The translations under genes were made by a program, and so were the position numbers. Positions 18,640-38,402 of a DNA stretch of 64,000 nt are shown here, piece by piece (position 1 is the first letter of the stretch; every line of letters starts with the position of its first letter). The notes under the pieces were generated by a model. That model did no database searches. It was not told where the DNA came from and was given only the letters and a program-made list of their open reading frames with translations. Source of the DNA: Kofleriaceae bacterium (lineage in GTDB: Bacteria; Myxococcota_A; Polyangia; Haliangiales; Haliangiaceae); contig CBDCCZ010000003.1 of assembly GCA_965215005.1 (NCBI GenBank), positions 160,001 through 224,000 of the forward strand, in the 5' to 3' direction.

Positions 18640-21600
18640 GTGGCGAACCGTCCTCCCAGTCCTGGTTCCGAGGAAGGACCTGCCGAGCAGCCCTCGGCAG
18701 ACGGCCCGCTCCTGCGCAGGCCAGCCACCGCCGATGACAACACGCGCACCACGAACGCCGCAGAGCTTGCCGCGCTGCAGTTCGAGACCATCGCCGATGA
18801 CGTCTATGAACGCGCCGAAGAGCTCGCGCGCGGGGGACTTGGACGCATCGTGTTGGCGCGCGATCGCCGCCTCGCGCGCACCGTAGCGATCAAAGAGCTC
18901 ACGGTCGATCATCCCTTCGCGCAGGCGCGCTTTGCCCGTGAGGTGCGCATCACGGCGCGCCTTCAGCATCCCAGCATCGTCCCCGTTCACGAGGCGGGCC
19001 GCTGGCGCGACGGCACTCCGTTTTACGCGATGAAGCACGTGCGTGGGCGCCCGCTCACCGCGGCGATCGAAGCCGCTAATGGCTGCAGCGAACGGCTGGC
19101 GCTCGTGGCGCATGTCATCGACGTTGCCGACGCCATGGCTTATGCCCACGCCGAAGGCATCCTCCATCGCGACCTGAAACCGGCCAACGTGCTCGTGGGA
19201 CCCTTCGGTGAAACCGTCGTCATCGACTGGGGACTCGCCAAGAACCTCCGCGATCCGGATGATCGACCGCCGCCCCTATCGCGCCCCGTCGCCCCTTATG
19301 AGACCAGCGACGGCACGGTCGTTGGAACGCCTGCGTACATGCCGCCCGAGCAGGCGCTCGGTAAGCCGGTTGATCTTCGCGCCGATGTCTATGCGCTAGG
19401 GGCCATCCTTTATCAGGTGCTCGCGGGGCGACGTCCTTATGCGGAAGCCGTCGCCGCCAATGTCGTTGCTAGCGTCACCGCTGGGCCGCCCACAACCGCT
19501 CGCGCAGCTCGCACCAGAGGCACCGCGTGACTTGATCGCTATCGTCGAAAAAGCGATGGCTCGCGACCCCAGCGCCCGTTACGCTGACGCCCAAGAGATG
19601 GCCGCGGAGCTCAGTCGCTACGACGCCGATGGCCTGGTCGGAGCGCACCGTTACACGTCGATGGAGCTCCTGCGGCGCTTTTATCGCCGCAGGCGCGCCG
19701 CGCTGCTCACCGCCGCGGCCGCATTCATGCTTCTAGTGCTCATTGGGACGCTCAGCGTCATCAACATCGCGAGCCAACGCCGCCGCGCCGAAGCCAGCGC
19801 GCGAGCCGAAATTCTGGCTCGACAGAAAGCAGATCGAGCCGCCGCCGCAGAGGCCAGTGCGCGTGCGGAAGCCGAGTCGCGCTTTGATCAACTGGTGGTC
19901 GAACGGGCACGCTCGCTACTGGATAGTGATCCCACGGCCGCGCTGGCTTGGCTCAAAGAGCTCGGGGTCGTCGTCTCGGGTGCAGCATCGATCGCCGCCG
20001 ACGCCCAGCAGCGAGGCGTGGCGCGGTGGGTCTTCGCAGGTCACGGCGGCGAAGTCTGGGACGTGGCGCTCAGCTCCGATGGCGAGCGACTCGCCTCCGG
20101 TGCAAGCGATGGAAACGTCCGGGTGTGGGAGCTCGACAGCGGCCGACTGCGGCTGTTGCGCGGTCATGAGGCGCGGGTTCCGACGGTGGCATTCTCTCCA
20201 AGCGGAGGATTGCTGGCCAGCGGCAGCTATGACGGCACGGTGCGGCTTTGGGATCTGAGCCAGGCGAGCCCGCGCGCGCGGGTGCTGTCCGACCACAAGG
20301 GCGAAATCAAACGAATCGTGTTTTCGCCGGATGGAAACCGTCTCGCCGCCCTCGGTTCCGGCGACATCGCGGTGTGGGACCTCTCCAACGGCCGCGTGGC
20401 CCATCGCAACGCAGGAGGCGCTCGCGAGGCGCTGCTAGCATTCTCGCCGGATGGGAAGCTTCTAGCAAATGGCCCCCACTCCACTGGGATCGAGCTTTGG
20501 GATCAAACGAGCGGCGCCATCACCAAGCTGCGTGGGCCCCGCGACGAAGTCACCGCGCTGGCGTTCTCGAGCGACGGCAAGGCGTTGGTCATCGGCGACG
20601 AAGGCGGCAATGTCTGGATTTCTGGCCTCGACGGTCGCAGCCGGCTAATCGGCACCAGCTCGGCGATGATCCGCGCGGTGGCGTTCGCACCGGATGCAGC
20701 GAGTGTTGCTTCAGGCGATCAAGACGGCGGGGTGTGGATCTGGGATGCAGCCGGCCGAGGCGGCCGCGCTATCGGCGCGCATGAAGAGCGCGTGACTGCG
20801 CTTGCTTACTCCATTGACGACACGCTAATCACGACCAGCTGGGACAAAACCGCGCGCATTTGGTCGCTCTCCGAGGAGACCGTCGAGACCTTGCGCGGTC
20901 ACACCGGTGTGATCGAGGCATTGGCGGTTTCGCCAACGGGCATGGTGGCTACCGGCTCATGGGACAAGACGGTGCGGGTATGGCCTGTACAGGCACCAAC
21001 TCGCCGCGTCCTCCGCGGTCATCGCATTGGCGTCAAGGCCATTGCGGTAGCGCCTAGCGGCCGGCTCTTGGCCTCAGGAGCGCACGACGACACGGTTCGC
21101 GTATGGAATCTTCAAAGCGGGACGAGCCGCGCCTTTACCGGTCACACAGACCATATCTTTCGCGTGCTCTTCTCGCCCGATGGAAGCACCATCGCCAGCT
21201 CCTCCGATGACCGCACGGTGCGCCTCTGGAACCTCACTACAGGACGAGCGCGAGTGCTCGAGGGCCACACCGGCGATGTCGAAGAGCTCGCTTTCTCCCC
21301 CGACGGTCGATATCTCGTATCCGGCGCAGAGGATCAGAGCGCGCGACTTTGGAATCTGGCCAGCGACGAGAGTCGCATCTTGCCCGCCAACGCCGATGTC
21401 TCCGATGTCGCATTCTCGCCAACCGGTGATTCGGTCGCGGTTGCCAGTCTCGATGGCCGCGTTCGCGTTTGGCCGGTCGCAGGCGGCGCACCCGAAGAGC
21501 TCGATGGATCGGATGCCGGCGTCGGAACGCTGGAATTCCTCGACCAAGCAACGCTGCTTTGGGGCGACGCCGCCGGCAGGCTGCATCTGGTGAATCGGCA

Positions 21601-22069
21601 CAGCGGGTCAACGCGCTCGCTCGCCACCGGCTTGCCCAACGTGCGCTCGCTAGCGGTTCATCCAGCAAGCGCACAGGTTGCAGCGATAGGCGCATCCCCC
21701 GACGTGGCCTTCTGCGACCTCGATGCTGGCACCTGCCGCACCTGGGTTGGCCACGAAGGCGAGGTGCTAGCGCTGGCTTTTTCTGCCGATGGTCGCGCGC
21801 TCGCAACCGGGGGCGCCGACGACACCGTGCGGCTTTGGTCGGTGGCTACCGGTGAGCATCGACCGCTCCGAGGTCCCGATGCGCCTATCTTCGACGTCGC
21901 GTTCACGCCCAGTGGCGAAGAAGTGCTCGCAGGGAGCGGCGACGGAACCATCTCGCGGTGGCCGGCCGAGCTTCCACCCAGGCCGAGCATGCTACGCAGC
22001 TGGCTGCAAAAGGCGACCACGATGGAGGTAGCGCCCCTGCGGTCTCAACAGCGCGCGGCCAGCAAGTAG
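18640..22069 (+). pseudogene. Ser/Thr kinase with about 13-14 WD40 repeats, split by a +1 frameshift (may be a sequencing error)
   Basis: [35 protein letters not shown] in 18640-19530; kinase C-lobe continues in next frame ([14 protein letters not shown]) then TM and GH...WD repeats; removing one C at 19489-19491 fuses them. Confidence 0.85.
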
Positions 22070-25911: not shown

Positions 25912-26057
25912 CACGCGCCGCAGAGCGCAAGTACTCGCCTGGCGCGGCCGGTCCTTCTCGCCAGTGCCGATGCCCGCGCTGGGTCTGCACCTCTGGGCGC
26001 CGGCCGCGCCGGGGGCAAACTGTCAGACGCGCGTGAGAGATTGTCTGCCGATTGAAG

Positions 26058-26717
26058 ATGGTGGGCACGAAGTTCAAAGTGAAGACTCGGAGGAAGCGAC
26101 ACCGGCAGGAAGCGTTCGCGTTTCGCACCTGGGGTGGCAAGCGCGAGGGTGCTGGGCGCAAGCCGACGGGCAAGCGCGCCGGGGTGTCCCACGCGCCGCG
26201 TGCGCGCATTCGCCGCACGACGCCGGTGCACGTCACGCTTCGCATGGCGCCGCATGTCTACAATCTGCGCAGCAGGCGGTCGTTCCGGGTCATTCAGCAG
26301 GCGTTGTTTGCGGCTAGCAATCGCCTAGGCACCAAGATTCTCGAGTTCTCGGTGCAGGGCAACCACGTGCATCTGCTCGCCGAGACGCAGGACGACGCTG
26401 CGCTCTCCCGAGCGATGAAGGGCTTGTCGGTGCGCCTCGCTCGGGGCCTCAACAAGATGATGGGCAAGCGCGGCCGGGTGCTCGGCGACCGCTACCACGC
26501 TCACGTGCTGCGGACGCCCACCGAGGTGGTGCGCGTCCGCGCTTACATCAAGCGCAACTACCGCAAGCACGCCGCCGAGCGCGGGCACAAGCTGCCCGCG
26601 GGCTTCGTAGATCCATATTCGTCGTCGGCGCCCGGAATGCGCCGCAGGCTCGGGCTACCGGCGCCTGGCTGGCTCGCGAGCCACGGCGCCTCCGCCACGG
26701 CAGAAAACACGACGTGA
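26058..26717 (+). CDS. Y1 HUH transposase (IS200-like / REP-associated tyrosine transposase, RAYT)
   Basis: WGGKREGAGRK, PVHVTLR, HUH motif GNHVHLL, DRYH, catalytic Tyr in AYIKRN. Confidence 0.85.
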   Translation: MVGTKFKVKTRRKRHRQEAFAFRTWGGKREGAGRKPTGKRAGVSHAPRARIRRTTPVHVTLRMAPHVYNLRSRRSFRVIQQALFAASNRLGTKILEFSVQGNHVHLLAETQDDAALSRAMKGLSVRLARGLNKMMGKRGRVLGDRYHAHVLRTPTEVVRVRAYIKRNYRKHAAERGHKLPAGFVDPYSSSAPGMRRRLGLPAPGWLASHGASATAENTT

Positions 26718-26748
26718 CAGCTCGTCGCCTCGCTACGCTAACATCGTT

Positions 26749-29610
26749 TCACAGCGGCGCTGCGTCATCGAGCGGTACGTCGACCACCAGCCGGGTGCCT
26801 ATGCCCGGGCTCGAGCCGATGCGCGCGGTACCGCCGAGCTCCTCCGCTGCGAGCTTGATGGCATCCATCCCTACGCCGCGCCCGGAAATGGTCGAGACGC
26901 GCTCAGCCGTCGAAAAGCCGGGCAAGAACAACAGCTCGTCGATTTGGGTGTCAATGAGCTGGGTTGCATGCGCGGGGTCGACCAGGCCTTTATCGATGGC
27001 GCGCCGGCGGACGCGGTCGCGGTCGATGCCGCGGCCATCGTCGCCCACGGTGACGCGCAACCGTTCGTCGTCGACCTCGAGCTGCACGCGCACGATGCCG
27101 CGCTCGGGCTTGCCTTGGCGAACGCGGTCGGCTGGATCTTCGAGGCCGTGATCGATGGCGTTGCGAACCGCATGCAAGAGAATCTCGCCGAGCTTGCGCA
27201 GGCGGCTCTCTTCCACTAGTGGTGATGCTCCCTCGAACCGCAACTCGACCGGCTTACCGAGCTCTTCGCCTAAGTCGGTCGCCAGCGAGCCCAGGCGATC
27301 CGCGAGTCCACGAACGGGAACACACGTGAGCCCCCGGACCGCACGACGCAGGCGTCCATACGCTTCGTGAAGCTCGTCAGATAACGCGCGTCCCGCGCCG
27401 GTCAACGCGTCCAGCGAGGCCATCTCGGTTTGCACCAACGCCGCGCGTTCGGCTGCCGAGTGGCCAACGCCTGCTTGCGCCGCGGGCCGCACGGTGAACG
27501 CGCTGGCATCGCGAAACAGTCGCTCCAAGCGAGCCGAGGCCAGAGAGGTGCCCGCGCTCAAGGTCTGCCGCAGCGTGAGGATGCCGAGCGACTCGGCCTC
27601 GGTGGCCAGCTCTTCGAGCACGTTGACGAGCGGCGGCGGCGCGCTGGCGACGCGATCGATGGCGCGCTCGAGAAACAGTCGGCCATCGGCGCTGCGCACC
27701 TCGACCATGAAGGATTGGTAGAGGCGAAGCTGCTCGTCGAGCTCGGTGAGCCACGCCTCGACCCGGGCGGTGATACTGCGTTGCGGTCGCTCTGCGCGCA
27801 TCGCGTCGTCGAGCAGCTCGTGCAGCTCGCGGGCGTGAGCGCTCAAAGCCGGAAAGCGATAGCGTCGCGCGCATGCGGCGTAGCTATGGGCAAGCTCGTA
27901 GATACGCGCCAGTGCGCTCTTATCGCGCAGCCGCGTGCTCCAGCGCTCATACCCCCGCTGCATCTGCGAGAGCAGCTTACGCGCTTCGTCGTGAAAGCTC
28001 GCTAGGGCATCGACCACGCGCTCTTGCGGCGCGAGCGGAGCAATGGCTCGGGCGGCGTCGAGAAGCTCGAGAAGCTCGACCACCAGATAGTCATCGGGAC
28101 CGGCAACGCACGCCTCGACGTCAAAGACCATCTGCATGGCTGCTTGCGCGGCAACTCTTACGCTCTCGATAGCAAAGCTCTCTGCTGCACTTCGGGCGGC
28201 GTCGATCGCTCTGAGCAGCGCGCACATCACCAGTGGGTCTTCGCGTCGTTCGCACCAGCGATCGTGGCTTCGATCGATCTCGCTGGCGATCACCGCGCAC
28301 TCGGCGACGAAGTGCTCGGGCAAGTCCGAGCGGCCGAGCTCCGCCACTAGCGTGGTGACCCGAGCGAGCTCCTGCTCTAGGAGCGCCAGCGCTTCGGCGC
28401 GCGCCAGCGGATCGTGCAAGCTCTCCACCACCGGCACCGCAGCGCGGTGTAGCGCTCCTAGCGGCCGCACCCCGGCGGCATCGATGGCGCGCAGCAACTC
28501 GCGCCCAACGCGCTCGAGCTGACCAGCGTCGGTCGAGGCGGCTAGTACGCCGCCGCGGGATGGATGACGCAGAAATCCGCCGCCCCGATGCGGGGCAAGG
28601 GCGGCAGATTTCTGCTGCTCACCGCCCCCCTTCGGCGTCTCCCCAAGCGATTGTTGTGTTTCTAGCGGTTCACGACTTCCGCCGTGAACCACTAGGTGGC
28701 GGCAGGCGTCGACGGCTGCGATGACGCGAGCTAGCGAATCACGTCGCTGGGGCGCGTCCACCTCGGCAGAGCGGCTGAACTGCGCCGCCTCGCCGATCAG
28801 GTCGCGCAGACCGCCGATCAAGCTGCGAATGCGCGCGATCTGCTCGGGGGTGAGCGGCTCACGAGCGGCGCGCATCGGCTCGAGCTCATCTTCCGCGCTA
28901 TGCGCTGCTGCTTGCAAAGCATCGAGGTGAACCGCCCGCGCGTTGCCTTTGAGGGTATGAATGGCGCGAAAGATTTTGTGCACGGCGTGGCGCGCGGACG
29001 GGTCGGTTTGCAGGCGATCGGCCGCGGCGCTGCACTCGGTGAGAAGCCCCTGCGCTTCGGCGCGAAAGGTCTCGACGGCCACGGGATCCACGGCGGGTGC
29101 CGTCTGCGCCCGTGGCACCGAGGTCTGCTCGGAGGCGGGCACGGCCTCGGCTAGTCGTGCAAACATGAGCACGCGCACCAGCGCGCCGTCTTCATAAATA
29201 GGAGCATAGTCGAGCGCGAGCTCGGTACCGCCAGCGTCGGCGCGGCGCGGTGCTTCGTCGAGTTGCAGTGACCAGCCTTCGGAATCCGTTCCGGAGACGC
29301 ATGCGAGCCAGAGCGTCCACATGGCGGCAACGTCGGAGTCTTCTGAGACGCCGAGCGCATCGTGGAGCAAACAGCCGCGGCTCTGCTGCGCAGGCACGGC
29401 GGCGAGATTGGAGTGCAGGGTTTCGACCTCACCCGAGGTTGCATCGAACAGCACCACCACCCCGGGAAACTGCGCGAGCATCAGCTGCCCTAGCTCTGGC
29501 GCCGGCTCATGCACCGACTCGGCGATCGGCTCGATGACCTGACTTCCCATGGGCTCGTCGGCGAGCGGGAAGCTGCCGGTGCGGCGCTTCTTGAAGAATC
29601 CGCTAATCAT
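26749..29610 (-). CDS. CheA-like (class III-type) histidine kinase: PAS-like, Hpt, degenerate Hpt repeats, CheA-type HATPase, no CheW domain
   Basis: Hpt IFRAIHTLKG; HAVRNAIDHGLE, DDGRGID, LFLPGFSTAERVSTISGRGVGMD; protein ends right after the ATPase. Confidence 0.88.
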   Translation of the reverse strand: MISGFFKKRRTGSFPLADEPMGSQVIEPIAESVHEPAPELGQLMLAQFPGVVVLFDATSGEVETLHSNLAAVPAQQSRGCLLHDALGVSEDSDVAAMWTLWLACVSGTDSEGWSLQLDEAPRRADAGGTELALDYAPIYEDGALVRVLMFARLAEAVPASEQTSVPRAQTAPAVDPVAVETFRAEAQGLLTECSAAADRLQTDPSARHAVHKIFRAIHTLKGNARAVHLDALQAAAHSAEDELEPMRAAREPLTPEQIARIRSLIGGLRDLIGEAAQFSRSAEVDAPQRRDSLARVIAAVDACRHLVVHGGSREPLETQQSLGETPKGGGEQQKSAALAPHRGGGFLRHPSRGGVLAASTDAGQLERVGRELLRAIDAAGVRPLGALHRAAVPVVESLHDPLARAEALALLEQELARVTTLVAELGRSDLPEHFVAECAVIASEIDRSHDRWCERREDPLVMCALLRAIDAARSAAESFAIESVRVAAQAAMQMVFDVEACVAGPDDYLVVELLELLDAARAIAPLAPQERVVDALASFHDEARKLLSQMQRGYERWSTRLRDKSALARIYELAHSYAACARRYRFPALSAHARELHELLDDAMRAERPQRSITARVEAWLTELDEQLRLYQSFMVEVRSADGRLFLERAIDRVASAPPPLVNVLEELATEAESLGILTLRQTLSAGTSLASARLERLFRDASAFTVRPAAQAGVGHSAAERAALVQTEMASLDALTGAGRALSDELHEAYGRLRRAVRGLTCVPVRGLADRLGSLATDLGEELGKPVELRFEGASPLVEESRLRKLGEILLHAVRNAIDHGLEDPADRVRQGKPERGIVRVQLEVDDERLRVTVGDDGRGIDRDRVRRRAIDKGLVDPAHATQLIDTQIDELLFLPGFSTAERVSTISGRGVGMDAIKLAAEELGGTARIGSSPGIGTRLVVDVPLDDAAPL
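28543..28695. mobile_element. 150-bp palindromic element, copy 2, inserted in frame in the kinase gene
   Basis: CTAG at 28542-28545 and 28692-28695; about 95% identical to 25473-25625; adds 50 codons with no stop. Confidence 0.88.
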
Positions 29611-30089
29611 TCGCCCTCGATGATGCGCACGCCGATGAGAATCTTCAGAACTCCGGCGCTGGTGTCGAGCGAGACTACGAGAACCTGCTCGGTCAAGCTG
29701 CGATCTTCGATCGAGCCACTGTGAATTCGCGGCGGTAAAATCTCTACTTCATAGCCAGCATCGAGGAGCAGTCCCGTTGCATTGCCGGTGATGATGTTGG
29801 CGAGCTCGCTCACCACGTCGTCGCAAACTGCTTGCTCGAGCGCATCCATCGCGTCGATGGCCATCATCTTGGTGGCAAACAGTCGCGCGAGCTCTTCGCT
29901 GAATACCCACGTGATCGGCCCCGCTAGGCGACCCGTCATCTCCACGGTGCACACCAGGCTCGGCGGCGGATCGATCGCTCGGGTGATGCTGAGCCCGGCC
30001 GGCTGCACATCGATGCCGATGAACGTCTTGATGACGTCGACGACTGGATCGACGAAGGCATTGACGACCTGTGCATTGATGTTAGCCAT
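29607..30089 (-). CDS. cheX: CheX family phosphatase
   Basis: INAQVVNAFV start, MTGRLAG, catalytic-type SELANIITGNA (ExxN), ILPP. Confidence 0.85.
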   Translation of the reverse strand: MANINAQVVNAFVDPVVDVIKTFIGIDVQPAGLSITRAIDPPPSLVCTVEMTGRLAGPITWVFSEELARLFATKMMAIDAMDALEQAVCDDVVSELANIITGNATGLLLDAGYEVEILPPRIHSGSIEDRSLTEQVLVVSLDTSAGVLKILIGVRIIEGE

Positions 30090-30100
30090 CGCCCGCGCCC

Positions 30101-31741
30101 TCATCCTCGGGTAACGCGCATAACCTCGCGCGCGGAGGTAATGCCAGCAATGAGCTTCTTGAGCGCCTGGAACCGCATCGGCTTGAAGCCTTCACTTAAC
30201 GCATGCTCGCGGATCGCCTCGGTGGTGGCACCGCGCGAGATGAGCGCGCGCAGCGGCTCCGTCACTTCGAGTAGCTCACGCACCGCGGTCCGGCCCGAGT
30301 AGCCGGTATCGTTGCAGCGAAAGCAGCCACGCCCGCGCTTGAAGCGAATTTCGGGTGGCAGGTTCTGCAGCCCCAGCGCTTCACGCTCCTGCAGCGACGG
30401 CTCGTACTCTTCTACGCAGCCGGTGCAGACCTTGCGCAACAGCCGCTGCGCGATGACGCCTACCATGGATGGCGCGACGAGATACGGCTGCACGCCCATT
30501 TCCGTGAGCCGGGTAATCGCGCCGGGCGCATCGTTGGTGTGCAGCGACGCCAGCACGAGATGGCCCGTGAGCGCCGCTTCTGAAGCGATGACTCCAGTCT
30601 CGTGGTCGCGAATCTCGCCGATGAGAATCACGTCGGGGTCCTGGCGCAGGATCGAGCGCAGCGCCCCCGCGAAGCTCAGGCCGCGTTTGACATTGACCTG
30701 CACCTGATTGATGCCGGGCAGCTGATACTCGATGGGATCTTCGACCGAGACGATGTTGATGTCGGGCGCTCGAACCGTGTTGAGCGCGCCGTAGAGGGTG
30801 GTGCTCTTGCCACTACCGGTCGGCCCCGTGACCAAGAGCAGCCCGTATGGCGCCGTCACCATGGTCTGAAAGATCTCGAGCTGCTTCTTGTCGAATCCGA
30901 GGTCCTCGAGCGGCAAGAGGGCTTTCTTGCTGTCGAGGATGCGCATGCAGACCTTCTCACCCCAATAGGTGGGAAGAACGGAGACGCGCAGATCGATCTC
31001 GCCCTCCGCGCGCCGCATCTTGATACGGCCGTCTTGCGGCACGTAGCGCACCGAGATGTCGAGCTCCGCGAGCACCTTGATGCGCGAAACGATCGCCGGA
31101 TGCAGCTCGGCGGGGCGCGTGTCGACGTGGCGCAATCCACCATCGACGCGATAGCGGGTGACGGTCTCTTTCTCGCTGGCCTCGATGTGAATGTCGCTAG
31201 CGCCCGCTTCAACAGCGCCTGCAATGAGTCGATCGACGATTTGAGTCGCTTCTAAGAGCGCCTCTTGCGTGACGTCGACCTCTTCTTCCACGGCCACGAT
31301 CTTGGTCGCTGGCTCGTCATACAGGCGACGAATCGCGCGATCAATCTCCAGCGGCGAAGCCAAGAGAATCGAGACGCTGCGCTTGAGCTCGGCCCCAATC
31401 CAGTCAAAGACCTCGAGCTGGGTCGGGTCTGCGGTGGCGATGGAGACCTCGCTGCCGTCGAGATAGGTGGGCACCAAGCGATGGCGTTCCGCTAGATGCC
31501 GCGGCAACAGAGTCGCGAGCTCGACGGCAATCTCGACACCATCGAGCTCGAGGCGCGCTACGTTGAAGCGCCGAGCCACCACCTCGAGCAGATCATCGAC
31601 GCTGGCGAAACCTGCAGCCGACAAACTGGCCTCGGAGAGGCGGCGCTGCTTGAGCAGCTCGAGCGCGGCGCGGTCGCGATTGGCTGCTGCGGTCGGTGCT
31701 GGCGTCGAGGCCTTCGCAGTGCCGGAAAACCGCAGGTTCAA
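30101..31741 (-). CDS. GspE/PulE/PilB family secretion or pilus-assembly ATPase
   Basis: T2SSE_N-like domain, ASDIHIE, PQDGR, GPTGSGKS, LRQDPDVILIGEIRD, LHTNDA, CxxC...CxxC. Confidence 0.93.
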   Translation of the reverse strand: MNLRFSGTAKASTPAPTAAANRDRAALELLKQRRLSEASLSAAGFASVDDLLEVVARRFNVARLELDGVEIAVELATLLPRHLAERHRLVPTYLDGSEVSIATADPTQLEVFDWIGAELKRSVSILLASPLEIDRAIRRLYDEPATKIVAVEEEVDVTQEALLEATQIVDRLIAGAVEAGASDIHIEASEKETVTRYRVDGGLRHVDTRPAELHPAIVSRIKVLAELDISVRYVPQDGRIKMRRAEGEIDLRVSVLPTYWGEKVCMRILDSKKALLPLEDLGFDKKQLEIFQTMVTAPYGLLLVTGPTGSGKSTTLYGALNTVRAPDINIVSVEDPIEYQLPGINQVQVNVKRGLSFAGALRSILRQDPDVILIGEIRDHETGVIASEAALTGHLVLASLHTNDAPGAITRLTEMGVQPYLVAPSMVGVIAQRLLRKVCTGCVEEYEPSLQEREALGLQNLPPEIRFKRGRGCFRCNDTGYSGRTAVRELLEVTEPLRALISRGATTEAIREHALSEGFKPMRFQALKKLIAGITSAREVMRVTRG

Positions 31742-32193
31742 AAGCCATCTCCGAACAACCGATCGAGATCATCCTGAGTCACGCGGCCTTGCGGCAGCGC
31801 CACCTCGTTCTCCGGCTCGTCGGCGTCTTCGAGGAGTTGGGCGATTTCGGCAGCATCGACCACCTCGATTTCTTGACTAATGCGAGGCGTCTTGCTGCTA
31901 ACGGCCGGCTCTGCGGGTTCTTGCGGTCTTGGCTCAGGCGCCGGTGCCACGGCGACTGGCGCTGGCAAGGGAGCCGGAGCGATGGGCGCCGGAGCGATGG
32001 GCCTAGCCATTGGACGCGCCGCGCGGGGCGCGTGCGCCGCGGCGACGAGCTCTGCGCCGCAGCCGCCACAGTAGTGATCGCGGGCTTCGTTGGCGAAGGC
32101 ACACCCGCCGCATACCTGGCGCAAGGATGAGCCGCAGTCGCCACAGTAGCGGCGACGGTCATCATTCTCGCGACTACATTGCATGCAATTCAT
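31738..32193 (-). CDS. Double zinc-ribbon protein with Pro-rich linker and CheZ/FliM-like acidic tail
   Basis: Four CxxC pairs, AP linker, tail VDAAEIAQLL...VTQDDLDRLF; ATGA overlap with cheY. Confidence 0.8.
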   Translation of the reverse strand: MNCMQCSRENDDRRRYCGDCGSSLRQVCGGCAFANEARDHYCGGCGAELVAAAHAPRAARPMARPIAPAPIAPAPLPAPVAVAPAPEPRPQEPAEPAVSSKTPRISQEIEVVDAAEIAQLLEDADEPENEVALPQGRVTQDDLDRLFGDGF

Positions 32194-32591
32194 CGAGCCG
32201 CCTCCGACGCCGCCGCTGGGGCTTGACCAATGCGAGTGAGCAGATGGCGAATGACGCCCACGACTTTGTCGGGCTTGAACGGCTTGAGCAGGTAATGGCT
32301 CACGCCGGCCTTCTGACACGCGACGATCTTTTCGCGCACCGTGAGCGAGGTGCACATCACCACCACCGCGTCGGGATACTTCTGCAGCAGCTCGGTAGCG
32401 GCGGTGACGCCGTCTTTGCCCGGCATCACGATGTCCATCGTGACGATGGTCGGGCGATAGCGCTCATAGAGCCCCATCGCATCGTCGCCACTGCCGCCTT
32501 CGGCCACCACCTGGCAGCCAGCCTGCTCCAGGAGCGGCCGCAGAGATCGGCGCATGATGGGCGAATCGTCGATGACAACGGCGGTGGGCAT
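32190..32591 (-). CDS. cheY: CheY-like single-domain response regulator
   Basis: VIDDS, TMDIVMPGKDG, CTS, LLKP; AGGAGG RBS upstream. Confidence 0.88.
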   Translation of the reverse strand: MPTAVVIDDSPIMRRSLRPLLEQAGCQVVAEGGSGDDAMGLYERYRPTIVTMDIVMPGKDGVTAATELLQKYPDAVVVMCTSLTVREKIVACQKAGVSHYLLKPFKPDKVVGVIRHLLTRIGQAPAAASEAAR

Positions 32592-32707
32592 GGATCGAAG
32601 TACCTCCTGAGCACTCGCAACGCGAGAAGGCGCGTGGCTCGCATGGAGGAATCGGTCGTTTGCCGCGTAGGTTTAGCGCCGCTTTGCGATTCTCTGCGGC
32701 GTAAGCG

Positions 32708-35700
32708 CTATTGCCCGAGTCGGCGCGCGTAGGGATCGCCGTTGATGCGGCTTTGCGAGCGAAAGTCGATCCATCCGATTACAGCGGCGCGCATAAACCC
32801 ACCACCGGTGGCGCGCGTGATCACCGGACTCAGCGCCTTGCCGGCGCCTTCATCGATGCGCTGATGCGTGAAGCTCCAGCTCATTCCAGCATCGATCGAG
32901 CTGGTCGCAAACACGTGCTCGGTGGTGGTGCCTTGGCCGAGATCGCTCGTGTATGCGAGCACCACCACGTCGCCGCCGGCGTAGGCGATTGCCGGCCGCC
33001 GCGTCACGCCTACGAGCGGCATGCCCTCGGCCGAGGACGCGAGCAGCGGGTTAGCGAAGCTAGCGCCGCCGTCGGTCGAGGTACTGGTGAAGATCTGCGT
33101 CCCCTGCCGCCGGTCCTCCCATGCCACGAAGATACGGTCGTCAGCGCCGCCAGCACCCGCGGGGTCGACCGCGAGCGCTGGAGTGAACGACGCGGAGACT
33201 TCGCCGGCCGGATCATCGAGAACGCGCTCACTGCCAAAGCTTGCGCCGGCATCCGTGGAGCGTACGAACATCGCATCGGAGCCGCCCCCCTGCTGCCGCG
33301 CCAGGTCCTGCCACACCACGTAAACGCGATTGCCGGTGACGTTCATCTTGGGAAAGTCACTGTTGCGATTATCGCCCGCGTCGCCGTCGAGCCGGCGCTC
33401 GTTGGCCGCAGGGATGGCGGCCGTTGCGCTGTCGGAGAACGCGGCGTAGACGTTGGGAGTTGCGCCGCCGCGCGCCTCCCGCCAAACCCAAATGAAGCGC
33501 CCGCCGCTGGTGATACCAACCTGCGGCCTGCCAGCCAGCGGCGATGCACCACTGCCGACGTTGATGGTTCGCGCCGCCGCGTAGGTCGCGCCGCTATCGG
33601 TGGAAACGCGGCTCACGATGTTGCGCGTGAGCGTACCGGTGTTCAGCGCCTCCCACACGATAGCCACGGTGGCGCCGTCAGCGCTGATTGCAAGCTCGTG
33701 ATGGAACGCATCGACGGGACCGTCGAGCGCCGCGGTCGGAGCCGAAAAGCTGCTGCCGTTGTCACTCGAGGTTTGCACGCGTATATCGCGGACGCCGCCG
33801 TTGACGCTTTGGTAGGCAATGTAGATGCGATCGCTGCCCGCCGCCGGCGCCACCGCGATGCGCGGCTGTACCGCGGCGTTGTTGACGCTGGAGGTGAGGT
33901 TGATGATGTCGCCCCAGCTGGCGCCGCCGTCGGTGGAGCGGCGAAAGAAGATGTCGCTGGTGCCATTGGTGAGATCCGACCAAACCGCATACACGCGTTG
34001 GCCGACGGGCGAGCCACCGGAGGCCAAGGTCAAGTCGAAGCTATGGCGTGCCCCCGCAGCGGTGCCGAGCGCGCCGCCGGCCGCATCGAGTCGAACCTCG
34101 CCCGCAACGGTCGTGCAGCCTTCGCCGGCGTCGCCCTGACCATCACAGTCGCTGTCGGCGCCGTCGCCACAGATGTCGACCTCATCGACGATTTGCCCAC
34201 GGCAGACGCCGTAGACGCCAAAGGTGCAGGTTTGATTGCCGCTTACGCACTCGCCGATGCCAGCGGTTCCAGGGGTGCCGTCGTAGCAAGCGCGAACCAG
34301 GGGGCCACCAGCGGCGGCTTCGTCGATGGTGGCGTCGCAGTCGTCATCGCGGTTGTTGCAAGCTTCGGCCCGCGGAAGCGTCTGACCGACGCACGCGCCT
34401 TCAAAGCGGCCAGCGATGCACGCTTGCTCACCACCGCGGCACTCGCCCACTCCTTCGGTGCCGGCGGCGCCGGTGTAGCAAGCGCGAGTCACCCCCTCGT
34501 CGGCGGAGCCATCGCAGTCATCATCGACTGCATTGCAGACCTCGCTCGTTGGTCCCGGCGCGCCCATGCAGACCAGCCCGCCGCGAGAGCAAATGAGCTG
34601 GCCGCTGTTGGTGCACGCACCGGTTGCCACCCCACCCGGCGCGCTGTTGCACGCGCCCCCGGTATCGACGAGATTGTCATCAGCGACGCCATTGCAGTCG
34701 TTGTCGATCGAGTCGCAAATTTCGACTCCGGCGTTGGAGATGTTGCACGCGTACTCACACCCGTCGACGCTGCGGCCGTTGGCGTCATGAAAGCCGGGAT
34801 TGCAGTCGCGCGCTGGATCGAACGTGCAAGCGCCTGCGACGCAAGATGGGCTCGCGTTGGCAAATCGGCACACGGCTCCGCATTGCCCGCAGTTGCGGAC
34901 ATCGGTTTGGAGATCGAAGGCTTCATCGACGGCGCCATCGCAGTCGTTATCGACCAAGTCACACGCCTCTTGTCCGCCATTGGACGCGCTGCAGCGATAC
35001 TCACAGCCGTTGGCTTGCTGGCCGTCGATGTCGAAGAACCCCGGATTGCAGTCGGTTTGGCCATCGAAGGCGCAGACGCCCGCTCGGCATTCCGCGCCGG
35101 TTACTTGAAAGAATCCGCAGACCCGGCCGCACTGACCACAGTTGTTCTCATCGCCTTGCAAGTCAAACGCCTCATCGAGCTCGCCATCGCAGTCGTTGTC
35201 GATGCCATCGCAGGCTTCTTCCCCGGCGTTGGAGACAAAGCAGCGGTACTCGCAGCCGTTCGAGCTCTCATACGCGCCGGCGGTATCGCCATCGAGATCG
35301 ATGTTGCCGGGAAAACAACCGACGAGCTCACAAGCACCCTCGTTGCAAGTGCTGATGGCGCCGCTTCGATCGCAGAGGTTGCCGCAAGCGCCGCAGTGGC
35401 GAACATCGGCGGTTAAGTCGAAGGCTTCGTCGATCTGGCCGTCGCAGTCGTTGTCGAGCTCGTCGCACGCCTCGGGGAACACCACGCCGCGATCGCAATC
35501 TGCGATGCTGGCGTCGCCGCCGGCTCCTGCGTCGCCGCCCGAGCTCGTCCCACTATCGCCATTGCCAGCACCAGCGTCGCTCGAAGCGCCGGGCGCTGGA
35601 CAGTTGATGCAGTACTCGCTCACGTCGCAGCCGGAAACCAGAAGGCCGCAAACCGCGAGCATCACGAGCCAGCCGCGCCTTCGCCGCCGAGGCAGCGCCA

Positions 35701-38317
35701 AGGCCCAGAGAGCGATTCCCAGCGCCCACAGCGCACTGGGCGCACCGCCGCCAGCGCTGCAACCGCCGCCGCCCGCCGCCGTGACATATTCCGCCGGCGG
35801 CCCCGCGTCGGCAGAGTCGGGCCGGGCGAAGCAGTCGCCACCAGCACACAGCTGATCGCCTGGGCAGACGACTCCAAAGCAGGGATCTTCGACACACGCC
35901 CCCGTCTCTGGATCACAGGCCTCGTCCTCACCACACCTCACGCCCAGACACGAACTGATGACGCACTGGCCGCTCGCCCGGTCGCACACCTGGTCGATGG
36001 AGCAGTCGACGCTGCAGCCGGTCGCTTCGCACGCGCCGTCGACGCAGCGCTCCGCGACGTCGCAGTCGATTCCGGCGCAGCTGCCAACGCACTCGCCGCG
36101 ACGACAGAAGGCGTCGTCCTCGCAGCTCACCTCGAAGCACGGATCGCTCACGCAGGTGCCGGCTCGACACAGCTCATCTGCTGCGCAGATGCCGTCGACG
36201 AACTCGCAGGTGTTGGGCACGCACGCGCCATCCCGCGGCCGGCACACCAAGTCGGCCGCGCAGCTGACGCGGTCGCAAAGTGGCGTGCAGACGCCCTCGA
36301 TGCATTGGGTTGGCTCGCCGGCCTGATTGGGCACGCACGTGACGCCAAAACACGGATTCTGCACGCAGAACCCGTTTTCGCAGACGCGGCCGATAGGACA
36401 CTGGAACTCGCCCTCGGCGCACGCGGTCGCGCACTCGCCGGCCTCGCACACCCCGCCTTGGCACAAATCGCCATCGTCGATCACGCCGTCGCAGTCATCA
36501 TCTAGACCGTTGCAGATCTCGGTGCCGGCGGTGACGCCGCCAACGCACTGCAGCTCGCCAGCGATGCACGCCAGCTGCCCCGGCTCGCACACGCCGGGCC
36601 CATCGCCGCAGGTGCCACCCGCGTCTGCTGGCATTTCATCGATGATCCCATCGCAGTCATCGTCATCGCCGTTGCATAGCTCGATCGTACCGGTCACCGC
36701 GCCATCGCAGACCGGGCCGCTCGCGGTGCAAACGGTTACGCCGGGCTCGCAAATGCCGACGCTGGTACCGCAAGGCTGGCCGACATCGACGGGCGACTCA
36801 TCCACGCTTCCATCGCAGTCGTTGTCGCGGGTGTCGCAGGTTTCCGGAACCGGACCAACTTCGCCCGCGCAGTCCAAGGTGCCGCCAATGCAGATGGTCT
36901 CCCCCAGCTCACAGGTGCCGCGATCGGTGACGCCGCAGCTCTGGCCAACATCGATCGGCGCATCATCGATGACCGCATCGCAGTCGTTGTCGAGGCCATC
37001 GCAACGCTCGGGGCTCGGCCCTACGTCGCCGGTGCAGGTCGGCGCGCCGGCGACGCACGCCAGCGTGCCCGGAGAGCACTCGCCGAGGCTCGAGCCGCAG
37101 CTACCGCCAACATCAATGGGCGACTCGTCGACCATCCCATCGCAGTCGTCGTCGCTGCCGTTGCAGCGCTCGAGATTGGGGCCGGTGTCGTCGCTGCAGC
37201 TGAGCGCTCCGGCGGTGCAGACCTCAACGCCTTCCTGGCATAGGTCGGCGTCGGGGCCATCGCACGGGGCACCGGTGCCACTGGGGTTGTCGTCGATGGC
37301 ATTGTTGCAGTTGTTGTCGAGGCCATCACAAACCTCCGGTGACGGCGCCACTACCGAGGCGCACTGCAGCTCTGCTTGCTGGCAAATGGTCTCGCCGGCG
37401 CGGCATTCGCCAAATACGGCACCGTCGGAACAGGTTAGGTCGACGTTATCGCACTGACACGGCTCGCCCTCGCCGGTGAGGTCGGGGTCATCGACATCGA
37501 CCAAGTCATCGCAGTCGTTGTCGATGCCGTCGCAGACTTCGACCGTGGGCACGCACGGCGGCGTGAGACCATCGACGCCGATCATCATGTCTTCGAAGTC
37601 GTTGTCGCCGCCGCGAAACAGATCTTCGAAGCCAAAGTAAAATGTATCGGCGTCGAGCGCCGAGCTGTAGACGAGGTGGTGAACGAAGTCGCCATCGTCA
37701 TTAAGATCTTTTTGCGTAAAGTAGATCCGCCCAAAGAAAACATCCGCGCGGGTGAGATAATCGGCATCGCCGCAGCGGCCGCCGTTGCCCTCGGGTGTGA
37801 TGAGATAGAAGCCGATGAAGCCGCCGTCGTATCGGCCAGCGGCTTGCTCCGCCGCGAAGTCGACGGTGATCATCGCGGGAGGCTCGGCGTTGCGAACGTA
37901 CTGCGCGGGATTGCCGTGCTGATGGTCGGCGTGCGCCGCGGGATTGGCGGGATCATAGGCGTGGTTCTGCATCGGCGTCCCGCAGCCGAGAATGGGATGC
38001 AGGTTGCTGGCGCGCCCGACGAGGCTGCTCACGTCATCGCCGACGTTGTACCAACCAAAGCTGTTCTCGAAGCCAGCGCCTTCGGCGTGGTCGCGGAAGA
38101 CCACCGGCTGGGCGACGTTGGGCAAGAAGACCTCGGGCAACTCGGCAGCGTCTAGGCGAGCGTTCAACGGCTCGCCTAAAGAGTTGAGTACCGCTTGCAA
38201 GCGGTTGCCGACTGGAATGATGGTGCCGTCGACTTGCGTGATAGTGGCGTGCGCTGCGCTCAGACCGATAACGATCGAGCCCAGCGACGCGAGCGCCGCG
38301 TGCCTGCGTGTCCCCAC
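32708..38317 (-). CDS. Giant Cys-rich surface protein: DUF4114-like, 7 MopE-type repeats, internal MYXO-CTERM, lipobox, 7 more repeats, BNR propeller
   Basis: GFEDLFRGGDNDFED; 14 ExC(D/N)xxD(N/D)DCDGxxD(E/D) repeats (last degenerate); six SxDxGxx(W/F/Y) Asp boxes; start 38317 or 38353. Confidence 0.85.
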   Translation of the reverse strand: MGTRRHAALASLGSIVIGLSAAHATITQVDGTIIPVGNRLQAVLNSLGEPLNARLDAAELPEVFLPNVAQPVVFRDHAEGAGFENSFGWYNVGDDVSSLVGRASNLHPILGCGTPMQNHAYDPANPAAHADHQHGNPAQYVRNAEPPAMITVDFAAEQAAGRYDGGFIGFYLITPEGNGGRCGDADYLTRADVFFGRIYFTQKDLNDDGDFVHHLVYSSALDADTFYFGFEDLFRGGDNDFEDMMIGVDGLTPPCVPTVEVCDGIDNDCDDLVDVDDPDLTGEGEPCQCDNVDLTCSDGAVFGECRAGETICQQAELQCASVVAPSPEVCDGLDNNCNNAIDDNPSGTGAPCDGPDADLCQEGVEVCTAGALSCSDDTGPNLERCNGSDDDCDGMVDESPIDVGGSCGSSLGECSPGTLACVAGAPTCTGDVGPSPERCDGLDNDCDAVIDDAPIDVGQSCGVTDRGTCELGETICIGGTLDCAGEVGPVPETCDTRDNDCDGSVDESPVDVGQPCGTSVGICEPGVTVCTASGPVCDGAVTGTIELCNGDDDDCDGIIDEMPADAGGTCGDGPGVCEPGQLACIAGELQCVGGVTAGTEICNGLDDDCDGVIDDGDLCQGGVCEAGECATACAEGEFQCPIGRVCENGFCVQNPCFGVTCVPNQAGEPTQCIEGVCTPLCDRVSCAADLVCRPRDGACVPNTCEFVDGICAADELCRAGTCVSDPCFEVSCEDDAFCRRGECVGSCAGIDCDVAERCVDGACEATGCSVDCSIDQVCDRASGQCVISSCLGVRCGEDEACDPETGACVEDPCFGVVCPGDQLCAGGDCFARPDSADAGPPAEYVTAAGGGGCSAGGGAPSALWALGIALWALALPRRRRRGWLVMLAVCGLLVSGCDVSEYCINCPAPGASSDAGAGNGDSGTSSGGDAGAGGDASIADCDRGVVFPEACDELDNDCDGQIDEAFDLTADVRHCGACGNLCDRSGAISTCNEGACELVGCFPGNIDLDGDTAGAYESSNGCEYRCFVSNAGEEACDGIDNDCDGELDEAFDLQGDENNCGQCGRVCGFFQVTGAECRAGVCAFDGQTDCNPGFFDIDGQQANGCEYRCSASNGGQEACDLVDNDCDGAVDEAFDLQTDVRNCGQCGAVCRFANASPSCVAGACTFDPARDCNPGFHDANGRSVDGCEYACNISNAGVEICDSIDNDCNGVADDNLVDTGGACNSAPGGVATGACTNSGQLICSRGGLVCMGAPGPTSEVCNAVDDDCDGSADEGVTRACYTGAAGTEGVGECRGGEQACIAGRFEGACVGQTLPRAEACNNRDDDCDATIDEAAAGGPLVRACYDGTPGTAGIGECVSGNQTCTFGVYGVCRGQIVDEVDICGDGADSDCDGQGDAGEGCTTVAGEVRLDAAGGALGTAAGARHSFDLTLASGGSPVGQRVYAVWSDLTNGTSDIFFRRSTDGGASWGDIINLTSSVNNAAVQPRIAVAPAAGSDRIYIAYQSVNGGVRDIRVQTSSDNGSSFSAPTAALDGPVDAFHHELAISADGATVAIVWEALNTGTLTRNIVSRVSTDSGATYAAARTINVGSGASPLAGRPQVGITSGGRFIWVWREARGGATPNVYAAFSDSATAAIPAANERRLDGDAGDNRNSDFPKMNVTGNRVYVVWQDLARQQGGGSDAMFVRSTDAGASFGSERVLDDPAGEVSASFTPALAVDPAGAGGADDRIFVAWEDRRQGTQIFTSTSTDGGASFANPLLASSAEGMPLVGVTRRPAIAYAGGDVVVLAYTSDLGQGTTTEHVFATSSIDAGMSWSFTHQRIDEGAGKALSPVITRATGGGFMRAAVIGWIDFRSQSRINGDPYARRLGQ

Positions 38318-38402
38318 CCGCGCAGGATACGACGTCGCGACCACTGGCCTCAATGCGCAGGGCGCACTCGCTGCGCGCTGCCGCGTTCACCACGCTCCCG
38401 CG

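Follow-up and report, generated by a model that had tools for sequence, protein, structure and literature searches.

How non-flagellar chemotaxis-like pathways reach their targets is a long-standing question, and the known answers are few, namely FliM/FliY, the archaeal CheF, and the direct binding of PilB by PixG or EmvR. Here we analyse a stretch of 64,000 nucleotides from a Kofleriaceae bacterium, a non-flagellated myxobacterium (assembly GCA_965215005.1, contig CBDCCZ010000003.1, positions 160,001 to 224,000), which is called the window below and to which coordinates refer unless a contig or locus is named. On its minus strand, a gene for a 151-residue zinc-ribbon protein (31738..32193, stop codon included) lies between the genes for a CheY-type receiver and a PilB/GspE-type ATPase. 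The family to which the protein belongs is unnamed, undescribed and conserved, and we read the protein tentatively, at slightly less than an even chance, as an undescribed adaptor that would dock phosphorylated CheY (CheY-P) and hold the ATPase.

CheZ docks CheY with its C-terminal peptide, about residues 200-214 in E. coli, and ZitP combines an N-terminal zinc ribbon with a flexible linker and a short partner-binding motif. In FliM, the N-terminal sequence M1GDSILSQAEIDALL16 is described as the docking site for CheY-P (bioRxiv 10.1101/781468), and the 'EIDALL' motif is reported to be conserved in FliM and FliY (PMC9126983). The latter source presents CheF as the adaptor between CheY-P and the archaellum, which is type-IV-pilus-like. 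GltJ of Myxococcus xanthus is described as having an N-terminal zinc ribbon and a 95-residue linker in which a short motif binds MglA-GTP; its ribbon is reported to bind this motif until a partner displaces it, and the freed ribbon then recruits MglB (PMC11135422). For MglB of the same species, the published account places the C-terminal helix, residues 147-157, in a pocket of MglA formed by alpha5, beta2 and the beta2-beta3 loop, states that D150-D152 matter for activity, and gives contacts of D154 with MglA K185 and of F157 with K181 (PMC6785124).

The locus studied here can be set beside each of these. The C-terminal tail of the zinc-ribbon protein follows the same order as the N-terminal peptide of FliM and FliY (hydrophobic, S/T, Q, x, acidic, I/L, D, x, L, hydrophobic) and resembles it as a short predicted helix on a flexible segment, accompanied by a putatively cognate CheY with equivalents of Y106 and K109; it differs in that the family motif lies at the C-terminus of a zinc-ribbon protein, whereas that of FliM lies at the N-terminus of a rotor protein, in that the tail ends in F and the FliM peptide in L, and in that the family has two motifs in tandem. 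With CheZ it shares an acidic C-terminal helix after a linker and an SQD..D.L core, but it has no phosphatase domain. The proposed function is like that of CheF, whose C-terminal part is described as binding CheY-P while its other end sits on the motor; by the same description, CheF is a dimer with PH-like domains, its helical bundle binds CheY beside the phosphorylation site and not by a FliM-type peptide, and, as far as this description goes, the two are unrelated in sequence (PMC9126983). GltJ is portrayed as a membrane protein of the machinery with one ribbon and a GYF domain (PMC11135422), whereas the protein in the window has a double ribbon. No hydrophobic segment was seen by eye in it. 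The layout of an N-terminal zinc ribbon, a flexible linker and a short, possibly partner-binding motif is nevertheless that of GltJ and ZitP.

Results

The zinc-ribbon open reading frame (ORF) runs on the minus strand from an ATG at 32193 to a stop codon at 31738-31740. Residues 3-46 (32056..32187, minus strand) match the Pfam double zinc ribbon DZR (PF12773) with E 7.6e-8 and 32.8 bits, above the cut-off of 27.3, and contain four CxxC pairs at residues 3, 17, 28 and 42, a putative two-zinc site whose cysteine columns are invariant or at least 90% conserved in an alignment of 117 sequences. A Pro/Ala-rich linker occupies residues 51-100 (31894..32043, minus strand; 32 of 50 residues are P or A) and differs freely between family members in both length and sequence. 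The 51 residues at the C-terminal end are acidic (14 D/E against 4 K/R) and carry two short motifs on the same strand: motif 1, VDAAEIAQLL, at residues 112-121 (31831..31860), with the family consensus LSAAELAELL, and motif 2, the tail, VTQDDLDRLF, at residues 138-147 (31753..31782). The C-terminal end, residues 138-151, reads VTQDDLDRLFGDGF. A sequence-only reading of the window had singled out the four CxxC pairs, the long Pro/Ala linker, VDAAEIAQLL and the terminal peptide, and all of these were found as it described them. In an AlphaFold2 model made with the 117 sequences (mean predicted local distance difference test score 79.7), the ribbon scores 92-94 and the linker, which has no predicted secondary structure, 56-75; exactly two helices are predicted after the ribbon, at residues 114-123 and 140-148, and they coincide with motifs 1 and 2.

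Apart from the zinc ligands, no part of the family is conserved better than the tail. A loose regular expression for it found, among the six-frame ORFs of at least 60 residues in the 6.2-Mb genome, the zinc-ribbon gene and only one internal site. The first relatives were three database proteins with 32-37% identity and the syntenic gene of genome G032 with 42% identity, all ending in QD[DT]LDRLFG. Scans of species genomes and of metagenomes added 6 and 10 loci, and the scanned loci with a named organism came from Kofleriaceae, Haliangiales or 'Myxococcales' metagenome-assembled genomes (MAGs). A profile of 13 sequences searched against 1.84 billion representatives gave 13,650 matches at E <= 0.001, many of them probably by the zinc ribbon alone. 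The best 150 of these comprise 117 small proteins (87-247 residues) that have four CxxC pairs and carry the tail among their last 22 residues, together with 33 that are either long multi-domain proteins or short ones without the tail.

The 117 small proteins and P0004 make up a set of 118 tails with the consensus [VI][ST]QDDLD[RA]LF followed by G. Of these members, 117 have Q at position 0, 112 have D at +4, 110 have L at +6, 117 have F at +7 and 85 have G at +8, and the motif stands 1-5 residues from the C-terminus in 116 of the 118. Lack of conservation had been named beforehand as the result that would count against a docking role; instead, 117 of the best 150 relatives end in [VI][ST]QDDLD[RA]LFG, read as a consensus. 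One detail of the sequence-only reading did not hold: the terminal 'GF' shared with CheZ, which it had taken as CheZ-like, is peculiar to the window protein; the family retains just the G that follows LF, and then come 0-4 residues that vary. P0134, which looks like a read-through of cheY and the zinc-ribbon gene with a scrambled middle, was left out of alignment A4. Longer fused carriers of region 101-151 were sought among 75 candidates and none scored, which is weak evidence against fused forms. In metagenomes, the pattern [TDG]QD[DQ][LI]D[RA]LF occurred in 380 stretches, only 10 of which encode relatives of the zinc-ribbon protein; the other carriers could include MglB-like or FliM/FliY-like proteins. 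The family members that were looked up carry only the name 'hypothetical protein', Pfam and NCBIfam detect just the zinc ribbon, and literature searches, including searches by the tail sequence, found no description of the family.

A Foldseek search of the model of the zinc-ribbon protein against the PDB returned no match at E <= 0.001. The top rows for each ribbon half were RanBP2/NZF-type zinc fingers (E 0.39-2, 24-27 columns, not significant), several of which were solved with the small GTPase Ran-GDP, a curiosity beside the possible link to the small GTPase MglA that is discussed below and not evidence for it. A closely similar N-terminal double zinc ribbon heads proteins of 400-1400 residues without the tail (L004 and L008; P0119, P0122, P0129, P0149 and P0150), in which, judged by eye, an adenylate-cyclase-like region and then an AAA/TPR-like region follow the ribbon. 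Such long proteins are common, being found in 27 of 400 other genomes of the phylum at E <= 1e-10. The genome of the window also has a second small double-zinc-ribbon ORF (C19:69610-69891, plus strand, locus L057, open frame of 137 residues), which matches profile positions 3-84 only and showed no match to the tail.

The resemblance to CheY-docking peptides was assessed with a log-odds matrix built from the 118 tails only, with which E. coli K-12 FliM and CheZ were scored; all 5,991,599 positions of the six-frame ORFs of at least 100 residues in the window's own genome served as the null. The best site in FliM (334 residues) was 6-15, LSQAEIDALL, with 14.4 bits (7 null positions, 4e-4 expected per protein), and that in CheZ (214 residues) was 200-209, ASQDQVDDLL, with 10.3 bits (38 null positions, 1.3e-3 expected per protein); the second-best site in each protein scored below 0. 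Motif 1 was obtained by expectation-maximisation on the linkers, a procedure that was seeded with four family sequences chosen by eye, which is a caveat to what the resulting matrix finds. It converged to L-S-A-A-E-L-A-E-L-[LF], exceeded the 95th percentile of shuffled linkers in 98 of the 118 members, and ends 11-15 residues (median 14) before the tail. The best sites of the motif-1 matrix were again FliM 6-15 (15.7 bits, 84 null positions) and CheZ 200-209 (12.7 bits, 425 null positions). The two matrices each pick both peptides, and the likeness to FliM-N and CheZ-C that the sequence-only reading had proposed can be measured. The observed feature is real and more than chance, and the zinc-ribbon protein combines a new architecture with a peptide of an already known docking type. 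Three other motifs were considered and dropped, as their hydrophobic spacing differs: QL[SD]LF of beta-clamp ligands, the C-terminal peptide of FtsZ and the tail of the single-stranded DNA-binding protein SSB.

The same tail matrix reveals a closer look-alike, which the sequence-only reading had missed. Across the whole genome, the zinc-ribbon gene scored 36.2 bits and the next site, ...SVFAEITDDDIDNLFND, 25.8 bits. This site, ITDDDIDNLF, stands after a flexible stretch and 2 residues before the C-terminus of a Roadblock/LC7 protein, the ORF for which lies on contig C54 (67350-68090, plus strand; L061:857..1591); a small GTPase gene follows directly (L061:1610..2197). By their sequences the pair looks like an mglB-mglA operon, with the GTPase read as MglA; it lies on a different contig from the zinc-ribbon operon. 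In M. xanthus MglB, residues D150-D152, D154 and F157 correspond to tail positions 0 to +2, +4 and +7. The tail resembles the C-terminal helix of MglB (PDB 6IZW) in its place at the extreme C-terminus and in keeping equivalents of the acidic residues D151, D152 and D154 and of F157; the MglB helix is carried by a Roadblock/LC7 domain encoded beside mglA, whereas that of the family is carried by a DZR protein encoded beside cheY and the ATPase gene. On the FliM-like motif-1 matrix the MglB helix scored 13.6 bits against 15.7 for FliM, and by this measure it is itself FliM-N-like. The tail thus falls into a motif class for which two kinds of reader are known, CheY-P and MglA.

On the side of the receivers, D57, T87, Y106 and K109 of E. 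coli CheY align with a conserved Asp, Thr/Ser, Tyr and Lys in all 15 of the modules compared; in the window CheY these are Asp53, Thr81, Tyr100 and Lys103. In the receivers of group B, defined below, E-S or E-Q replaces the D12-D13 pair. FliM was not found in the window genome (92.8% complete) by a search that found it in 4 control genomes, which makes a flagellar target unlikely.

The gene context was compared across 21 tail-bearing loci: the window, G032 (L009/L010), G014 (L019), G001, G017 and G018 (L016-L018), L011-L015 and L020-L029. The ATPase gene directly follows the zinc-ribbon gene in all of them except L024, with stop/start overlaps of ATGA, GTGA or TTGA. A single-domain receiver lies beside the pair in 17 of the 21, which are all those where the contig permits a view; in L015, L023, L025 and L027 the contig stops at the expected place of the receiver. 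In group A, the order is cheY, zinc-ribbon gene, ATPase gene, cheX and cheA-like gene, and the ATPases are 56-65% identical to that of the window. In group B, it is zinc-ribbon gene, ATPase gene and receiver gene (followed by an HDOD gene in L016), and the ATPases are 44-49% and the receivers 26-31% identical to those of the window. Loci L021 and L022 fall between the two arrangements. Although the receiver has a different place in each group, upstream in A and after the ATPase in B, both groups retain the tail. In L024 the order is cheA-like gene, cheY, zinc-ribbon gene, cheX and then a gene for a FIST protein, with no ATPase gene in the next 1.1 kb.

Among relatives of the window genome, the zinc-ribbon gene was present in 7 of 41 (G000, G001, G014, G017, G018, G025 and G032). 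ATPase orthologues with 63-65% identity were found only in G014 and G032 among 40 relatives, both of which carry a group-A gene, and G025 carries a group-B-like pair. When 401 genomes were sampled evenly across the phylum, the only full-length match was in the window's own genome; the other matches in this sample were partial, mostly to the zinc-ribbon end, and none reached the tail. One library member came from a Deferrisomatales MAG. In G001 (L016; C21:27000-45000) the group-B unit stands within a cell-division cluster, flanked on one side by ddl, beyond which are murB and a Mur ligase gene, and on the other by ftsQ-ftsA-ftsZ, and L017 (G017:C35) has the same pattern of ORF sizes and strands as L016.

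In the window, the zinc-ribbon gene is the second of a five-gene operon on the minus strand (cheY, zinc-ribbon gene, PilB/GspE-type ATPase gene, cheX, gene for a CheA-like kinase), the members of which are joined by four 4-base overlaps (ATGA, TTGA, ATGA and ATGA). Its ATG overlaps the stop of cheY (ATGA, 32190-32193) and its stop overlaps the TTG start of the ATPase ORF (TTGA, 31738-31741), in agreement with the coupling to both neighbours that had been read from the sequence. The cheY gene (32190..32591, minus strand) encodes a single-domain CheY-type receiver of 133 residues (Pfam Response_reg, E 1.1e-23), the best solved relatives of which are the CheY proteins 6er7 (5e-25) and 1tmy (2.2e-21).

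The PilB/GspE-family ATPase (30101..31741, minus strand, 546 residues) has an N-terminal domain of the T2SSE_N/MshEN type (Pfam T2SSE 2.2e-122, MshEN 1.2e-18). It falls under the NCBIfam equivalog cut-offs for both PilB (527 against 675.65 bits) and GspE (520.5 against 630.25 bits), and by sequence it is classed as a member of the T2SSE superfamily that is neither named equivalog. The closest solved structure is Geobacter PilB 6olj (1e-118), with which GPTGSGKS, EDPIE, DPDVILIGEIRD, GHLVLASLHTN and the Cys motifs align, and these nucleotide-binding and Cys motifs are intact. The genome has three full-length PilB/GspE-like genes in all, and one of the other two lies on contig C27 directly before a shorter T2SSE-family gene, presumably as an ordinary pilB-pilT pair.

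The downstream genes of the operon encode a CheY-P phosphatase family protein and the kinase. The cheX gene (29607..30104, minus strand, 165 residues) overlaps the ATPase gene by ATGA, and its product matches Pfam CheX at 1.1e-12 and NCBIfam CheX_Thtogales at 2.5e-18, the latter under the cut-off of that model. The CheA-like kinase (26749..29610, minus strand, 953 residues), whose gene overlaps cheX by ATGA, has an Hpt domain at residues 179-269 (Pfam, 6.8e-14) and a CheA-type catalytic region at about 745-948 (HATPase_c, 8.3e-17), and the NCBIfam CheA models match residues 745-948 only. Pfam and NCBIfam detected no CheW-like domain in it, Pfam had no match where a P2 domain is expected, and about 470 residues between Hpt and the catalytic region are assigned to no family. 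A terminator-like hairpin just after the kinase gene (26709..26728, minus strand), found by a consensus scan, marks a possible operon end; with 2 sites found by the scan against a shuffle mean of 3.3, it is weak evidence. A sigma-70 promoter scan gave no site in 26300..33100.

No gene for a methyl-accepting chemotaxis protein or CheW was found among the annotated ORFs of at least 200 residues between 13393 and 49626, and no pilin, platform or secretin gene in the 36 kb annotated around the operon. Directly upstream of cheY, a gene for a protein of 1881 residues (32708..38353, minus strand) encodes eight MopE-type Cys-rich metal-binding motifs, DUF4114 and a BNR-like C-terminal domain; it is not kept beside the operon in G032, where a histidine kinase gene stands upstream instead. 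Just past the operon end, an ORF at 26052..26717 (plus strand) has a weak match to an IS200-like Y1 transposase (E 2.7e-7). Further away, at 18640..22069 (plus strand), a Ser/Thr protein kinase gene is followed by a gene for a WD40-repeat protein of 876 residues that overlaps it in a different frame.

Discussion

If the zinc-ribbon protein is the adaptor that we propose, the CheA-like kinase of the operon would phosphorylate CheY, and CheY-P would expose its alpha4-beta5-alpha5 face, including Tyr100 (the equivalent of E. coli Y106), and would clamp motif 2, and perhaps motif 1, as with the FliM N-terminal or CheZ C-terminal peptide. The zinc-ribbon end would hold the PilB/GspE-type ATPase, the product of the translationally coupled next gene. 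Phosphorylation would then bring CheY-P onto the ATPase, the activity or location of which would change, and CheX would reset the signal. A tether of this kind, acting as a FliM-like switch for a non-flagellar motor, had been suggested by the sequence-only reading, and that suggestion is supported in part.

The tight coupling of the operon makes a partner from the same operon the more likely case. As the partner of the tail we favour CheY-P, to which we give an even chance, because the receiver is always present, the Q at position 0 is virtually invariant, motif 1 is FliM-like, and L024 keeps the zinc-ribbon gene with Che genes. The constant place of the zinc-ribbon gene next to the ATPase gene, which it overlaps, in loci among which the receiver moves, argues that the ATPase is a partner of some part of the protein, most simply of the zinc ribbon; that the ribbon binds it is conceivable, and we rate it somewhat below an even chance.

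Several observations weigh against the docking of CheY-P by the tail and the adaptor role built on it. The zinc-ribbon gene stays glued to the ATPase gene while the receiver moves, which fits an ATPase partner at least as well as CheY, and in group B the same tail is preceded by a different middle element (A..L..LN) that replaces motif 1. EmvR of Xanthomonas oryzae, a single-domain receiver (PMC11973254), and the phosphorylated receiver PixG of Synechocystis (PMC11181946) are reported to bind PilB without an adaptor; in these systems a CheY-like receiver is described as controlling a PilB-type ATPase, as we propose here, whereas in our loci a third conserved protein belongs between both genes. 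On the tail matrix, the C-terminus of the genome's own MglB outscores FliM and CheZ (25.8 bits against 14.4 and 10.3), and of the four best conserved tail positions, two, D(+4) and F(+7), are those at which the published account of MglB names contacts with MglA (PMC6785124). At position +7, FliM and CheZ both have L in place of the near-invariant F. Searched with phmmer, the tail matched PDB sequences in a single row at chance level (E 0.78), and four tails searched against Pfam with hmmscan (E <= 10) gave nothing.

The first of these observations leads to the alternative that the tail, or both helices, would bind the ATPase itself, for example its N-terminal domain, so that the protein would be a dedicated cofactor as PilZ or FimX is for PilB, while CheY would itself make direct contact with the ATPase or with the zinc ribbon. 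We consider this unlikely. In its favour, 20 of the 21 loci have the zinc-ribbon gene directly upstream of the ATPase gene, the stop of the one overlapping the start of the other; the gene and the ATPase subfamily are inherited together; the tail is common to groups A and B, between which the ATPases have kept 44-49% identity and the receivers only 26-31%; and the direct binding of a receiver to PilB has the reported precedents named above (PMC11973254, PMC11181946). Against it, L024 keeps the gene with cheA, cheY and cheX and without an adjacent ATPase gene, and among known ligands the motif class has two counterparts for CheY and one for MglA but none for an ATPase. The sections consulted of a review of PilB cofactors, which treat c-di-GMP (cyclic di-GMP), PilZ, FimX and two-component inputs, mention neither such a peptide nor a zinc-ribbon tail protein (PMC11656802).

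A second alternative starts from the likeness to the MglB helix, which keeps MglA in play as the partner of the tail. The tail would copy that helix and bind the allosteric pocket of MglA (alpha5, beta2 and the beta2-beta3 loop), so that the protein would join MglA and the ATPase or compete with MglB, and CheY would act elsewhere, for example on the ATPase or on motif 1. The C-terminus of MglB is the best site of the tail matrix in the genome apart from the gene itself, an mglB-mglA operon is present in the genome, the loci with a named organism are all from Myxococcota, and the residues described for MglB as D151, D152, D154 and F157 fall on tail positions +1, +2, +4 and +7 (PMC6785124). Moreover, in the account of GltJ, an N-terminal zinc ribbon and a linker motif work with MglA-GTP and MglB (PMC11135422), and by analogy motif 1 or motif 2 may take part in an intramolecular switch like that of GltJ. 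Nevertheless, no small GTPase gene occurs in any annotated context, the receiver always travels with the zinc-ribbon gene, and a Deferrisomatales MAG supplied one member. At position 0, 117 of the 118 tails have the Q of FliM and CheZ where MglB has D, and motif 1 is nearer to FliM (15.7 bits) than to MglB (13.6 bits). On balance we regard a tail that binds MglA as improbable. That the helices would tether CheY-P for the phosphatase CheX (or for the kinase), with no direct role at the ATPase, is very improbable, for although CheZ uses such a C-terminal peptide, cheX is present in the group-A operons, and the zinc-ribbon gene lies directly before cheX in L024, the group-B loci L016 and L018 keep the tail with no CheX or CheA among the annotated surrounding genes, and no link between a zinc ribbon and CheX is known. 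The remaining probability belongs to something else.

A conserved family of this size gives the question of its partner some weight, as 117 of the best 150 library representatives belong to it. If the tail binds CheY-P, as the adaptor reading has it, the FliM-type docking code would have found a new use away from the flagellum, directed at a pilus or secretion-type ATPase. Were MglA its ligand instead, the zinc-ribbon protein would be a new link between the polarity GTPase and the ATPase. A more far-reaching idea, which we consider quite a long shot, is that [ST]-[QD]-D-D-[LI]-D-x-L-F might be a shared docking code of non-flagellated Myxococcota, read by CheY-like receivers and by MglA, in which the MglB helix would be the missing docking site for FrzX-P and the zinc-ribbon tail the equivalent site on the PilB-type ATPase. 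Should this be true, the tails could compete for MglA, and a Che-type pathway, the polarity GTPase and a motor ATPase would be wired together through one peptide.

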